IMG/VR virus record: IMGVR_UViG_3300037063_000214
Length of the DNA: 64,000 nt
Origin: a virus
Reading direction: 5' to 3' (one strand)
Positions 8,539 through 10,469 of this stretch are shown here, piece by piece (the stretch's first letter is position 1; the number at the start of each line of letters is the position of its first letter). The position numbers and the translations under genes are program-made. A model generated the notes under the pieces. The model worked only from the letters and a program-made list of their open reading frames with translations, searched no databases and was not told the origin of the DNA.

Positions 8539-8632
8539 TGGTAGTGGGCCGGGGAGTTGAACCCACGCCGTCGCTCTAATCTGGAGCTTTCCCGAGTTTA
8601 TAAGGCTCAGCCGCACACCAGTGCTGCCCACC
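8539..8632 (-). tRNA. atypical class II tRNA-like gene (long variable arm, encoded CCA, 9-nt anticodon loop CCUUAUAAA)
   Basis: Acceptor stem GGTGGGC/GCCCACT, discriminator A and CCA. GGTTCAACTCC T-arm. Variable hairpin GCTC-cagatta-GAGC. The only good anticodon stem (CTGAG/CTCGG) encloses 9 nt, so the isotype is uncertain. Could be a suppressor or pseudo-tRNA. Confidence 0.45.
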
Positions 8633-8644
8633 ACATCCAAATTT

Positions 8645-8727
8645 TGGTACCCAGAGGGGGACTCGAACCCCCACCCTTTCGGACTCGATCTTAAGCCGAG
8701 CGCGTCTTCCAATTTCGCCATCCGGGC
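8645..8727 (-). tRNA. tRNA-Leu (anticodon UAA)
   Basis: Manual fold: acceptor GCCCGGA/TCTGGGT, D-stem GCG/CGC, anticodon stem CTCGG/TCGAG with loop CTTAAGA, long variable arm, T-arm GGGGG-TTCGAGT-CCCCC, CCA encoded. Confidence 0.8.
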
Positions 8728-8916
8728 CTATCTTGTAACTCCATAATTTTGTATATACTGCGGGTCTGCATGCATACATTCATCGCAAATAATGGTCTCG
8801 TAATTCCTGGCGTATTTTCTCCAACAACCCAAGCTTACATCGTAAAATCCGCAGGTAAACCTTTCGTGAAAATCGCCTTCAACTTTTCGCTTACATCGAT
8901 CACAATGAATCAGCAT
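8728..8916 (-). CDS. small zinc-finger protein
   Basis: 62-aa ORF with CDRC...CGF...CDEC. Confidence 0.4.
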   Translation of the reverse strand: MLIHCDRCKRKVEGDFHERFTCGFYDVSLGCWRKYARNYETIICDECMHADPQYIQNYGVTR

Positions 8917-9191
8917 TATTCTCTGGGGTCATCCTCATAGAAAGCCAAAACAGTTTCACTGCCCGCTGGAATTTCCGTGTAGCCCGCATCGGTCACTACA
9001 TATCCCTCTGGATGCGCTTCTTTTGCTTCCTCGAATTTTTTATCGCTAGCATCCAGCACCACGCATGACCAATGATCCTGCGGATTTTTTTTGTAAAGCC
9101 CTAGAGCTGCATGTACACATTGAGCGGATTGCTTATTTTCACTCATGTGCAAATTTTTTCTAACGATGAGCTTAATTCTCATTTTGCTCAC
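8916..9191 (-). CDS. peptidyl-tRNA hydrolase, PTH2 family
   Basis: SAQCVHAALGLYKK and VVTDAGYTEIPAGSETVLAF match the PTH2 signatures (AAQCxHAA ... DAGRTQIAPGSxTVLA). Confidence 0.65.
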   Translation of the reverse strand: MSKMRIKLIVRKNLHMSENKQSAQCVHAALGLYKKNPQDHWSCVVLDASDKKFEEAKEAHPEGYVVTDAGYTEIPAGSETVLAFYEDDPRE

Positions 9192-9492
9192 CCGTACATG
9201 TATAACATGTACCGTTTAATTCCAGCGCATCTCCACAAGAAGGGCAGCGGTCAGATTCATCGAGATCTGATGGTTCGGTGGTATCTTCTAGAACTCTATC
9301 CAGATAGCAATAATCCATCATATCCTGGTGGGCCTTAATGTACGCTTTTCGCAAACTATTGAATTTTTTATCTTTGAATTCTTTAAAATCCCAGTTCTGC
9401 AAAACATAATCCAAACTTCCTTCCCACTCTATTTTGGCGTTAAATTCTCGTGCGTTCTCAATGGACAACAGTGGTTTATTTTTTCTCTTCAT
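9172..9492 (-). CDS. hypothetical protein with C-terminal zinc ribbon
   Basis: 106-aa ORF containing CPSCG...CYTC. Confidence 0.4.
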   Translation of the reverse strand: MKRKNKPLLSIENAREFNAKIEWEGSLDYVLQNWDFKEFKDKKFNSLRKAYIKAHQDMMDYCYLDRVLEDTTEPSDLDESDRCPSCGDALELNGTCYTCTGEQNEN

Positions 9493-9521
9493 CGTAACTC
9501 CTTACGATAATACCATAAAGT

Positions 9522-9610
9522 TGGCCGAGAGAAAGGGATTCGAACCCTTGATACCTTACGGTATACCAGTTTTCAAGACTGGCGGCATAATCCATCTCGC
9601 CCATCTCTCG
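9522..9610 (-). tRNA. tRNA-Ser (anticodon UGA)
   Basis: Manual fold: acceptor CGAGAGA/TCTCTCG, discriminator G and CCA. Anticodon stem CCAGT/ACTGG with loop CTTGAAA. 16-nt variable arm. T-arm AAGGG-TTCGAAT-CCCTT. Confidence 0.85.
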
Positions 9611-9617
9611 GTAAAGG

Positions 9618-9704
9618 CAGAGAGTACCGGACTCGAACCGGTGTGCCCTATTTCTAGAAGCAGTCGCTTTCGAGGCGACCTACCATGCCCACTGGTTACT
9701 CTCT
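9618..9704 (-). tRNA. tRNA-Ser (anticodon CGA)
   Basis: Acceptor AGAGAGT/ACTCTCT. Anticodon stem GTCGC/GCGAC with loop CTCGAAA. Long variable arm. T-arm ACCGG-TTCGAGT-CCGGT. CCA not fully encoded. Confidence 0.8.
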
Positions 9705-9709
9705 AAACT

Positions 9710-9798
9710 TGGCGATGACAGACCGATTCGAACGATCGATACCTTGCGGTATGGTAGCTTTCCAAGCTACTGGGTTAATCCATCTCCCCCATGTCATC
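9710..9798 (-). tRNA. tRNA-Ser (anticodon GGA)
   Basis: Acceptor GATGACA/TGTCATC, discriminator G and CCA. Anticodon stem GTAGC/GCTAC with loop TTGGAAA. Long variable arm. T-arm GATCG-TTCGAAT-CGGTC. Confidence 0.8.
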
Positions 9799-9897
9799 AA
9801 ATCGCAGGGAACATAAAACATACAGTTGGTACAACTCCACTGCCGGGTTTCCCCCAGTGGGTATCGAAGTAACTGTACGCAACACCGCTGCGAATTT

Positions 9898-10347
9898 TTA
9901 CTCTTCTGGACCTTCACCGACTTCGATGAAGTCCATTAAATCTTCCCCACCAGCATATTTACTAGTGTTACCGCCTAGCCATCCGTTAAAAGCTCCCTGC
10001 TCTGTGGCTTTACGAATACCTTCAACTAAAAACAACCAGGCATCGTATGGCATGTCCCTGCGTAGATAGTTGCATCGCATACATGCTGGATTGACATTCG
10101 TCTTTAAATGACCTAAGCTATTATCTATTCTATCCAAGGTCATCCTTATTTTTGTCTCTCCGCAGTAAAAACATCCATTGCTAATTTTATCCTTAATAAA
10201 GTCTTTGTCAAGATCATTTTCCCGAAGCAATTTTTTATCTGAGCTACGAGAATCTCGCCAAATAATGCTAGGTAAAAATTTAGGATCTTGCCTACGCCTT
10301 TTAGCCCAACGATGCCGTTTTTCCCTACAAACTATTTTAGTGTCCAT
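9898..10347 (-). CDS. HNH endonuclease
   Basis: CFYCGE...LDRIDN..GH...NVNPACMRCN motif. Confidence 0.7.
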   Translation of the reverse strand: MDTKIVCREKRHRWAKRRRQDPKFLPSIIWRDSRSSDKKLLRENDLDKDFIKDKISNGCFYCGETKIRMTLDRIDNSLGHLKTNVNPACMRCNYLRRDMPYDAWLFLVEGIRKATEQGAFNGWLGGNTSKYAGGEDLMDFIEVGEGPEE

Positions 10348-10379
10348 GCTAAGAACACAGAAAGTTTGTTTTGATGTTA

Positions 10380-10469
10380 TGGCGGAAGTGCCGAGGCTCG
10401 AACTCGGATAGCCCTTTCAGGCTTCGGCGGCTTAGCAAACCGCTGGTTTAACCATTCACCCACACTTCC
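10380..10469 (-). tRNA. tRNA-Ser (anticodon GCU)
   Basis: Acceptor GGAAGTG/CACTTCC, discriminator G and CCA. Anticodon stem GCGGT/GCCGC with loop TTGCTAA. 20-nt variable arm. T-arm CCGAG-TTCGAGC-CTCGG. Confidence 0.85.

Follow-up and report, generated by a model that had tools for sequence, protein, structure and literature searches.

A long-arm tRNA with a UAU anticodon in a conserved tRNA and peptidyl-tRNA hydrolase gene block of a predicted huge soil phage

Among the codons of the bacterial genetic code, AUA is a classic problem case, as its decoding normally needs the essential enzyme TilS together with a fitting tRNA. The class I tRNA-Ile(UAU) of Mycoplasma mobile, Bifidobacterium and lactic acid bacteria bypasses lysidine and TilS by reading AUA with an unmodified-type UAU anticodon (PMC3575796; PMC8450103). 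A long extra arm together with UAU has been described for the allo-tRNA(UAU) group (Mukai et al. 2017, PMC5389517) and for the nematode nev-tRNA-Ile(UAU), which by codon is neither a Leu nor a Ser tRNA (PMC3333845, PMC4300185). An anticodon-like triplet has been placed in the extra arm of engineered 'pseudo-anticodon' variable (V)-arm tRNAs (Mukai 2020, PMC7590224). Finally, jumbo phages carry many tRNA genes along with PTH2, Thg1-like and RlaP genes (Iyer et al. 2021, PMC7824862; XacN1, PMC5852040), and the combination of RlaP, Thg1 and PTH2 has already been described as their RNA-repair and recycling kit (PMC7824862). Here we analyze a tRNA island in a 64,000-nt stretch of the virus record IMGVR_UViG_3300037063_000214 (the whole stretch is referred to as the window). 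The island contains a long-arm tRNA(UAU) that shares UAU, A73 and A37 with the class I tRNA-Ile(UAU), and it lies beside a predicted PTH2-type peptidyl-tRNA hydrolase.

We called tRNA genes with default ARAGORN, with Rfam RF00005 at its gathering score, with the Rfam tRNA-Sec model and with ARAGORN at the relaxed setting -ps80. With the default settings, six tRNA genes were returned for the window, every one of them on the minus strand, and RF00005 confirmed five of the six, missing Ser(CGA). The long-arm element was called only at -ps80, as tRNA-Ile(tat), and scored 27.4 bits with the tRNA-Sec model, below the cut-off of 47. Its parts are as follows:

8539-8632, minus strand: long-arm tRNA(UAU), 94 nt (ARAGORN -ps80, homologues and covariation)
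8632-8626 with 8549-8543, minus strand: acceptor stem, 7 bp, with G1·U72 (sequence)
8624-8613, minus strand: D arm, 4 bp plus tetraloop, GCAC-UGGU-GUGC, preceded by the one-nt linker A
8592-8610, minus strand: hairpin 1, the anticodon arm, stem CUGAGC/ACUCGG, loop CUUAUAA (sequence)
8573-8587, minus strand: hairpin 2, the extra ('variable') arm, 15 nt, stem GCUC/GAGC, loop CAGAUUA
8550-8567, minus strand: T arm, stem CG(U)GGG/CCCCG, 5 bp plus one bulged U, loop UUCAACU (sequence)
8542 and 8541-8539, minus strand: discriminator A73 and encoded CCA

The anticodon UAU occupies 8602-8600 in hairpin 1, whose stem has six positions with a C·A at the loop-proximal 31:39, and GAU occupies 8581-8579 in hairpin 2, from which five nt (GACGG) lead to the T stem. 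The general features of a cloverleaf are all present, including a 7-nt anticodon loop with U33 and a purine at 37, a UUCRANY T loop and CCA. An earlier, sequence-only reading of the island had described this gene as perfect in its acceptor, discriminator, CCA and T arm. A73 and CCA stood up to inspection, while the acceptor contains the G1·U72 wobble and the T arm the bulged U. The 9-nt anticodon loop proposed in the same reading dissolves into the six-position stem with its C·A, enclosing a canonical 7-nt loop. Folding of the single sequence to minimum free energy gave a z-score of only -1.15, which by itself says little about the fold, and a search of IMG/VR with an exact 26-mer of the element returned no match.

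A pattern built from the window copy and its relatives matched at least 119 contigs of IMG/VR, and in GTDB genomes it matched 49 stretches. Six of these 49 proved to be ordinary tRNA-Ile(GAU) genes whose real anticodon arm had been matched as the 'extra arm' of the pattern, and the other 43 are real. A second pattern, which left the extra arm unconstrained, matched at least 120 IMG/VR contigs and, among the matches listed, 89 distinct long tRNA(UAU) called by default ARAGORN; most members other than the window copy are called in this way, 178 distinct ones in all. Overall, the family is present in more than 200 viral contigs. The scan patterns impose A73, a constraint from which the set of relatives collected by synteny is free. 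Family members in genomes were of 2 kinds, namely solitary genes in Ruegeria, Roseovarius and Shimia, and genes within arrays of 20-40 tRNA genes in Bryobacterales, Terriglobia, Pyrinomonadaceae and Xanthobacteraceae, often beside tRNA-Ile(GAU). A member is also carried, under the annotation tRNA-Ile(tat), by a cultured phage of 469 kb, Sinorhizobium phage Phosso (PV764938, 383344-383436). As a separate observation, the arrays of Acidobacteriota pack 20-40 tRNA genes into ~4 kb and contain one long tRNA(UAU) each along with oddities such as Cys(ACA); examples among the fetched loci (L numbers) are L291 (3297-6791 of a 4.76-Mb Bryobacterales contig), L264, L266, L278, L289, L298 and L301.

We parsed 175 distinct family sequences, 154 of which have 2 hairpins between the D and T arms. 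The anticodon loop reads YUUAUAH in nearly all of these 154, and UAU is the anticodon in every relative. Covariation was measured in 20 aligned members of the subtype with a tetraloop D arm, to which the window copy belongs. Standard pairs made up 94.4% of the positions paired in the model, compared to 35-48% when partners were slid, and 21 of the 26 pairs showed changes on both sides. The covariation score was 0.65 versus 0.09-0.14 for the slid controls, and none of 500 shuffles matched the observed values. All five helices of the predicted fold are supported by covariation, and the bulged T-stem register seen in the window copy is found again, with compensatory changes, in L016, L054 and L226. 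The pair at 31:39, which closes the 7-nt anticodon loop, is standard in 64% of the family and non-standard in 36%; among 1,838 canonical tRNAs from the same loci, 5.1% are non-standard there (odds ratio 10.6, uncorrected for relatedness). Its homologues and this pattern of substitution mark 8539-8632 as a five-helix tRNA(UAU) and a predicted functional member of its family.

Among described RNAs, the allo-tRNA(UAU) group (PMC5389517) comes closest, and the likeness extends to detection by the tRNA-Sec model, the long extra arm, the D tetraloop, the long anticodon stem, mismatches that destabilize stems, 'five-stem-junction' shapes and an origin in soil, peat and acidobacteria. Whereas allo-tRNAs, in their published description, are defined by 8/4 or 9/3 acceptor and T stems, the window family is 7/5; their discriminator is G73 or U73, compared to A73 in the window copy and in all nine relatives collected by synteny, and G73 in the phage's own tRNA-Ser. 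The window copy thus has the D tetraloop, six-position anticodon stem and 15-nt extra arm of an allo-tRNA without the 8/4 or 9/3 fold and the discriminator of Ser identity. The 8/4, 9/3 and 9-bp-acceptor (tRNA-Sec or allo-tRNA) folds were each considered and rejected, as it is 7 acceptor and 5 T pairs that covary. Column 8, an A in at least 90% of the sequences, shows no pairing with the final column of the T stem, and an eighth pair would be A·G or A·A; the 9-bp acceptor extension is specific to the window copy and was not kept in L010 and L016. A literature search for described long-arm tRNA-Ile in phages returned only the allo-tRNA paper of 2017. Separately, we noted that a small extra hairpin of 3-4 bp, capped by a GNRA-type tetraloop, is frequent in the variable region of phage tRNAs whose isotypes normally have a short arm, namely Arg, Asn, Cys, Gln, Thr, Pro, Met, Trp and others (e.g., L150 4327-4415, L232 9195-9554 and L387 5623-8223).

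The long tRNA(UAU) is part of a larger island, the remaining genes of which are:

8645-8727, minus strand: tRNA-Leu(UAA), 83 nt, G1·U72, A73, encoded CCA (ARAGORN; Rfam 50.3 bits)
8728-8916, minus strand: CxxC zinc-ribbon-like open reading frame (ORF), 62 aa, between PTH2 and tRNA-Leu (ORF list; weak Zn-ribbon Pfam match)
8916-9182, minus strand: predicted compact PTH2-type peptidyl-tRNA hydrolase (Pfam PF01981, 46.4 bits versus a cut-off of 23, E=5e-12)
9172-9492, minus strand: ORF, 106 aa, with a C-terminal CxxC...CxxC motif (phrog_17752, unknown function; conserved in near-identical contigs)
9522-9610, minus strand: tRNA-Ser(UGA), 89 nt, G73, encoded CCA (ARAGORN; Rfam 52.6 bits)
9616-9704, minus strand: tRNA-Ser(CGA), 89 nt, irregular body (ARAGORN; tRNA-Sec model 26.7 bits)
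9710-9798, minus strand: tRNA-Ser(GGA), 89 nt (ARAGORN; Rfam 45.4 bits)
9898-10347, minus strand: endonuclease VII/HNH-type ORF, 149 aa (PHROG phrog_1035, E=1e-14; phrog_3322, phrog_2214)
10380-10469, minus strand: tRNA-Ser(GCU), 90 nt (ARAGORN; Rfam 54.4 bits)

ARAGORN bore out the Ser and Leu isotypes named in the sequence-only reading, where the four tRNA-Ser genes had been recognized as a full Ser set, and Rfam agreed for all but Ser(CGA). The tandem Ser genes do form a tight array, although with spacers of 5 and 5 nt and not of 5-7 nt. The fourth Ser gene lies apart as described, with the distance of 600 bp corrected to exactly 581 bp. This gap, which splits the Ser array, houses the endonuclease VII/HNH-type ORF; its PHROG profile match fits membership in the HNH/endonuclease VII phage families, and no Pfam match was found for it. 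Since the four Ser genes are contiguous in relatives (L009, L010 and L012), we interpret the gap as the insertion of a homing-type nuclease. tRNA-Leu(UAA) is located 12 nt upstream of the tRNA(UAU), and a zinc-ribbon ORF also follows PTH2 in the relative L010.

The claim that a PTH2 gene adjoins the tRNAs was likewise upheld. The predicted protein aligns to human Bit1/PTH2 (1q7s, E=5e-6) and to archaeal Pth2 (1wn2, 1rzw). We collected 94 homologues, and the motifs K..AQ..HA and DAG.TE (K17, Q21, H24, D65, G67 and T69) were invariant in 39 of them; on the strength of its profile and motifs, ORF 8916-9182 belongs to the PTH2 family PF01981. The reading frame is open back to a GTG at 9191, but the likely start is the ATG at 9182, since the resulting protein of 88 aa is found in identical form among recorded sequences. 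Relative to the sets described for jumbo phages, this PTH2 is unusually short (88 aa versus ~115) and is embedded in a block of the four Ser genes, Leu(UAA) and tRNA(UAU) that is conserved across the lineage.

This conservation was evident in two groups of relatives. In the near-identical contigs L002-L008 the element is 100% identical, in seven independent metagenome contigs, and offers no covariation information. Eight diverged relatives with 58-83% PTH2 identity (L009, L010, L012, L016, L054, L056, L063 and L065, three of them on contigs of 438-463 kb) likewise have the four Ser genes, Leu(UAA) and a long tRNA(UAU), at 0.1-1.3 kb from PTH2. The odd element therefore does have the conserved relatives without which the sequence-only reading would have called it into doubt. 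In L009, a 454-kb contig, the tRNA(UAU) is 95 nt long, is called by default ARAGORN and lies 6 nt from four tandem Ser genes; in L012 it lies within the Ser array; and in L010, L016, L054, L056, L063 and L065 it directly follows tRNA-Leu(UAA). The acceptor stems of these relatives are wholly different from each other and yet paired, and A73-CCA and the loop YUUAUAH are kept in all eight. At the loop-proximal position, the window copy, L012, L056 and L063 have C·A, L016 and L054 have A·C, L009 has C·C, and L010 and L065 have U-A. Use of the SprT-like neighbour as a synteny probe found no relatives.

Several observations on the tRNA genes of these relatives stand by themselves. In L065 (2411-2576) the last A of the CCA of tRNA-Leu(UAA) doubles as nucleotide 1 of the long tRNA(UAU). 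The tRNA-Leu(UAA) of L010 (9221-9297), L016 (5338-5414) and L065 (2411-2488) is 77-78 nt long with a much reduced variable arm, and 115 distinct short (70-80 nt) tRNA-Leu were counted among the fetched loci. L056 contains, at 490-574 among its Ser genes, a tRNA-like gene of 85 nt whose two-base 'anticodon' cannot be assigned.

The most distinctive part of the tRNA(UAU) is its second hairpin. Across the family this hairpin has a variable and covarying stem of 4-5 bp and a 7-nt loop N-A-G-A-U-N-R, followed in 80% of cases by five nt before the T stem. The subset retrieved without an extra-arm constraint comprised 36 sequences, for which the parser kept only loop centres GAU or GAC, so that G-A-U is there partly by construction; independent support for the loop centre comes from the second hairpins detected, 154 of 157 of which have GAU or GAC. 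The stem and flanking loop positions of the 36 sequences were unfiltered. In these, position 33 is A in 30 of 36, and the stem pairs C31-G39, G30-C40 and C29-G41 occur in 72%, 61% and 81%, respectively, compared to 42%, 55% and 60% in the anticodon stem of tRNA-Ile(GAU) from the same loci. Ranked by the combined frequencies of C31-G39 and C29-G41, tRNA-Ile(GAU) came first of 31 isoacceptors. A complete scan of IMG/VR for the arm alone returned 62 distinct sequences, 60 of which are tRNAs, each of the 60 with anticodon UAU; the coupling of the extra arm to the UAU anticodon is exclusive. With Y32, U33 and A37, hairpin 1 shows the hallmarks of a decoding loop, whereas hairpin 2, having A33 and mostly U37, does not. 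The class I tRNA-Ile(UAU) differs from the phage family in its normal 4-5-nt variable loop and adapted isoleucyl-tRNA synthetase (IleRS), in which Arg replaces Trp; the phage family adds a 4-5-bp arm with a GAU loop. The nev-tRNA-Ile(UAU) differs in being eukaryotic, leucylated in vitro and without a phage link. We know of no GAU-loop arm in that tRNA.

A typical bacterial IleRS charges UAU tRNAs poorly (PMC3575796), which would give an accessory arm a reason to exist, and a GUG triplet engineered into the V-arm loop raised histidylation, a gain abolished by changing GUG to GAG (PMC7590224). Based on these 2 findings, we hypothesized that hairpin 2 recruits IleRS. More specifically, the extra arm might be a natural 'pseudo-anticodon arm', copying the part of the tRNA-Ile(GAU) anticodon arm that bears identity, by means of which the ordinary IleRS of the host would be recruited to an AUA decoder that is independent of lysidine. 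Hairpin 2 would copy G34-A35-U36 together with C31-G39, G30-C40 and C29-G41, the GAU arm would let an IleRS averse to U34 charge the tRNA, and the true UAU loop would decode. We regard this as a tentative proposal that is more apt to fail than to hold. In contrast to the putative, natural and Ile-like (GAU) arm of the phage, the tRNAs of PMC7590224 are synthetic, His-specific and partly dependent on a HisRS with a fused extra anticodon-binding domain.

With respect to the island as a whole, we think it probable, with appreciable room for doubt, that it constitutes a conserved translation-support block that supplies four tRNA-Ser, tRNA-Leu(UAA) and an AUA-reading tRNA(UAU), and recycles tRNAs by way of PTH2. 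The Ser set, Leu(UAA) and PTH2 are an expected instance of jumbo-phage translation support. The phage has a guanine plus cytosine (GC) content of 43.5%; AUA accounts for 14.8 per 1000 codons (24% of Ile codons), UUA for 18.1 per 1000 (21% of Leu codons), and all six Ser codons are used. The block would supply decoders that a GC-rich host provides poorly, the tRNAs for AUA and UUA being scarce there, with the loop Y32-U33-UAU-A37 of hairpin 1 reading AUA. Ribosome drop-off at rare codons sequesters scarce tRNAs, as is established for lambda bar minigenes using AUA. PTH2 would free tRNAs trapped after drop-off as peptidyl-tRNA (or as N-blocked aminoacyl-tRNA), and a part in such recycling is the role we infer for it.

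The tRNA(UAU) itself is presumably expressed, charged by a class I synthetase, most likely with Ile, and used on the ribosome. The combination of A73, A37 and UAU expected of an AUA decoder is present in the window copy and across the family. G1·U72 was found in 45-56% of the family, compared to G73 with 0-4% G·U in tRNA-Ser; A73 and G1·U72 fit substrates of class I synthetases and not tRNA-Ser. We rejected G1·U72 as a family-specific mark, since many tRNA-Leu, -Val, -Glu and -Arg of phages share it, and it still speaks against Ser. The position in arrays beside tRNA-Ile(GAU) suggests Ile identity, and the likeness of the extra arm to the tRNA-Ile(GAU) anticodon arm is a further, indirect indication of it.

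Several findings weigh against this interpretation. The window copy was missed by both default ARAGORN and the general Rfam tRNA model, and is irregular in its tetraloop D arm, one-nt linker, bulged T stem and C·A at 31:39. A73 with G1·U72 fits tRNA-Leu as well as tRNA-Ile, and a naive-Bayes isotype classifier with 74% cross-validated accuracy placed Met, Arg or Cys ahead of Ile(GAU) when either hairpin was removed. Six 'allo-tRNA(UAU)' species were inactive as amber suppressors in E. coli, 2 of them being toxic, in an assay that detects Ser or Ala only (PMC5389517). An unmodified U34 could misread AUG as well. PTH2 homologues are found without neighbouring tRNAs in the relatives L001, L011, L013 and L014.

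A different account of the same genes gives weight to the RNA-repair functions encoded elsewhere in the window:

1598-2431, minus strand: RlaP nucleotidyltransferase (profile search, Pfam/PHROG)
5891-6124, minus strand: PNKP-phosphatase-domain fragment, 77 aa (profile search)
33969-34046, minus strand: tRNA-Lys(CUU) (ARAGORN; Rfam RF00005)
34989-35834, minus strand: Thg1-like 3'-5' polymerase (Pfam; PHROG E=1e-70)

The Thg1-like gene and tRNA-Lys(CUU) had been listed in the sequence-only reading as parts of a tRNA-supply and repair toolkit, possibly driven by anticodon nucleases of the host. Both are present, and the inventory now extends to RlaP and the PNKP fragment. The toolkit reading is thus borne out in part; a host nuclease as its driver is conjectural, and the codon usage of the phage explains the choice of tRNAs at least as well. 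In its fuller form this account describes a counter-defence kit, in which phage tRNAs would stand in for host tRNAs that anticodon nucleases or tRNA-acetylating toxins have cut or blocked, the unusual features of the phage tRNA bodies (open 31:39, extra arm and tetraloop D arm) would make them poor targets, and PTH2, Thg1-like, RlaP and PNKP would clean up. All four of these functions are present in a combination known from jumbo phages, the entire Ser set is duplicated despite even use of Ser codons, and non-canonical extra hairpins occur on many phage tRNAs of the fetched loci. On the other hand, we found no RNA ligase among the window ORFs scanned, the nuclease or toxin target is hypothetical, and the choice of Leu(UAA) and UAU matches the A-ending codon usage of the phage. 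We consider a counter-defence kit unlikely, while noting that it is compatible with the supply model and hence hard to separate from it. Still less likely, in our view, is that the long tRNA(UAU) is something other than a faithful Ile adaptor, that is, a non-translational or regulatory tRNA-like RNA, or a missense tRNA charged with Leu or Ser. Its likeness to tRNA-Sec and allo-tRNA (tRNA-Sec score, D tetraloop and six-position anticodon stem) favours such a role, as do the proposal of a non-translational role for allo-tRNA(UAU), inactive or toxic in E. coli (PMC5389517), the leucylation of nev-tRNA-Ile(UAU) in vitro (PMC4300185), and the match of A73 and G1·U72 to the phage's own tRNA-Leu. Against it, U33, UAU, A37 and A73-CCA are strictly kept, as expected of a decoding, chargeable tRNA; in tRNA arrays that are nearly complete, the tRNA(UAU) takes the place of the AUA decoder next to Ile(GAU); and the discriminator and 1:72 pair speak against SerRS. 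The D-loop elements used by bacterial LeuRS are missing from the tetraloop D arm of the window's subtype, which counts against leucylation.

The two remaining explanations, both raised in the sequence-only reading, were a frameshift or stop suppressor and a degenerate copy, and neither withstood comparison with the family. A suppressor of stop codons or of +1 frameshifts with an expanded 9-nt loop draws on the C·A of the window copy, which leaves 9 nt formally unpaired, and on the family's frequent non-standard 31:39. The anticodon is UAU everywhere, no anticodon complementary to a stop fits with U33, most members, L010 and L065 with their U-A among them, have a standard pair closing the 7-nt loop, and the helices covary. 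Moreover, a check of the window for recoding found all three stops in normal use (TAA 34, TAG 19, TGA 18) and no recoding signal; ORFs are long under the standard code, reaching 968 aa, with 79.5% of the window coding. Recoding of a stop was rejected as well, in that making any one stop a sense codon adds only ~5 points of ORF cover. We therefore hold a suppressor to be highly improbable. An equally slim chance is left for a functionless, degenerate pseudogene. The failure of default ARAGORN and the general Rfam tRNA model to detect the element, and its T- and anticodon-stem mismatches, are what would be expected of one, but its sequence is unchanged in the seven independent contigs, the presumed defects (T-stem bulge and open 31:39) recur and covary, and compensatory changes in every helix of diverged relatives refute this explanation.

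Returning to the translation-support block, its surroundings showed some further features. tRNA-Ser(CGA) has a one-nt linker from the acceptor to the D stem, and its gene encodes GCC-U and no full CCA. An alternative drawing of it has an 8-bp acceptor and a 4-bp T stem (AGAGAGUA/UACUCUCU; CCGG/CCGG) and is similar to the phage '(8/4) tRNA-Ser' of Mukai 2017. Upstream of Ser(GCU) is a 237-nt intergenic stretch (10470-10700, minus strand) with a near-consensus promoter-like site, TTGACA-17-TATTAT (10698-10670), and ~170 nt past it, directly before tRNA-Ser(GCU), a strong terminator-like hairpin (10501-10482). The two may mark a small RNA or a leader; Rfam matches were weak. Near the island lies a paralogous pair of small ORFs (11814-12320 and 12324-12746, minus strand), the first of which contains a stretch, EIRAGTGGDEATLF, resembling the PCRF motif of class I release factors (Pfam PCRF E=4e-4, below cut-off). 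This ORF could be a fragment related to translation termination. In the window-identical contigs L002 (19473-20188) and L004 (16586-17511), more tRNA genes, Trp(CCA), His(GUG), Arg(CCG), Arg(GCG) and Arg(ACG), lie at least ~170 bp beyond window position 1, and the tRNA set of the phage exceeds what the window shows.

The exact PTH2 protein is present on at least 22 peat or permafrost metagenome contigs of up to 53 kb, and PTH2 homologues on viral contigs of 438, 454 and 463 kb; from these matches we conclude that the window is part of a predicted huge soil or peat phage of the ~450-kb class. DNA similarity searches of 50,697 phage records with the 2.2-kb island and with the 94-nt element found generic tRNA-Leu matches at most, or none, and the records held no close relative of the window. 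Nearly all genes of the window are on one strand. Among them, profile searches identified a NAD-dependent ligase, ThyX, ribonucleotide reductase and two DNA methylases, and the following were also recorded:

2708-5188, minus strand: Major Vault Protein (MVP)-like, 826 aa, with shoulder and repeat domains
37260-38309, minus strand: TnpB/Cas12f-like (OrfB_IS605)
48646-49293, minus strand: protein with a C-terminal PEP-CTERM sorting motif
49421-50080, minus strand: sigma-70-like factor

The vault-like gene is kept near the tRNA block in the relatives L002-L010, and the relative L011 has two TnpB/Cas12f-like genes. The PEP-CTERM motif is a hint that the host may be Gram-negative and possess an exosortase system.

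Taken together, these findings identify the two-hairpin tRNA(UAU) as a distinct, widespread, experimentally tractable and largely unstudied tRNA variant. A phage is unable to rely on its host to modify a foreign tRNA, and a typical IleRS rejects plain UAU tRNAs. The constant pairing of a UAU anticodon with an Ile(GAU)-like hairpin points to an unrecognized route to charging, or protecting, an AUA decoder. The presence of the family in the cultured phage Phosso makes the question directly testable. If the pseudo-anticodon hypothesis is true, the arm would be a novel means of specifying tRNA identity, would offer mobile elements a portable solution to the AUA problem, and would provide a natural template for pseudo-anticodon tRNAs in synthetic biology.

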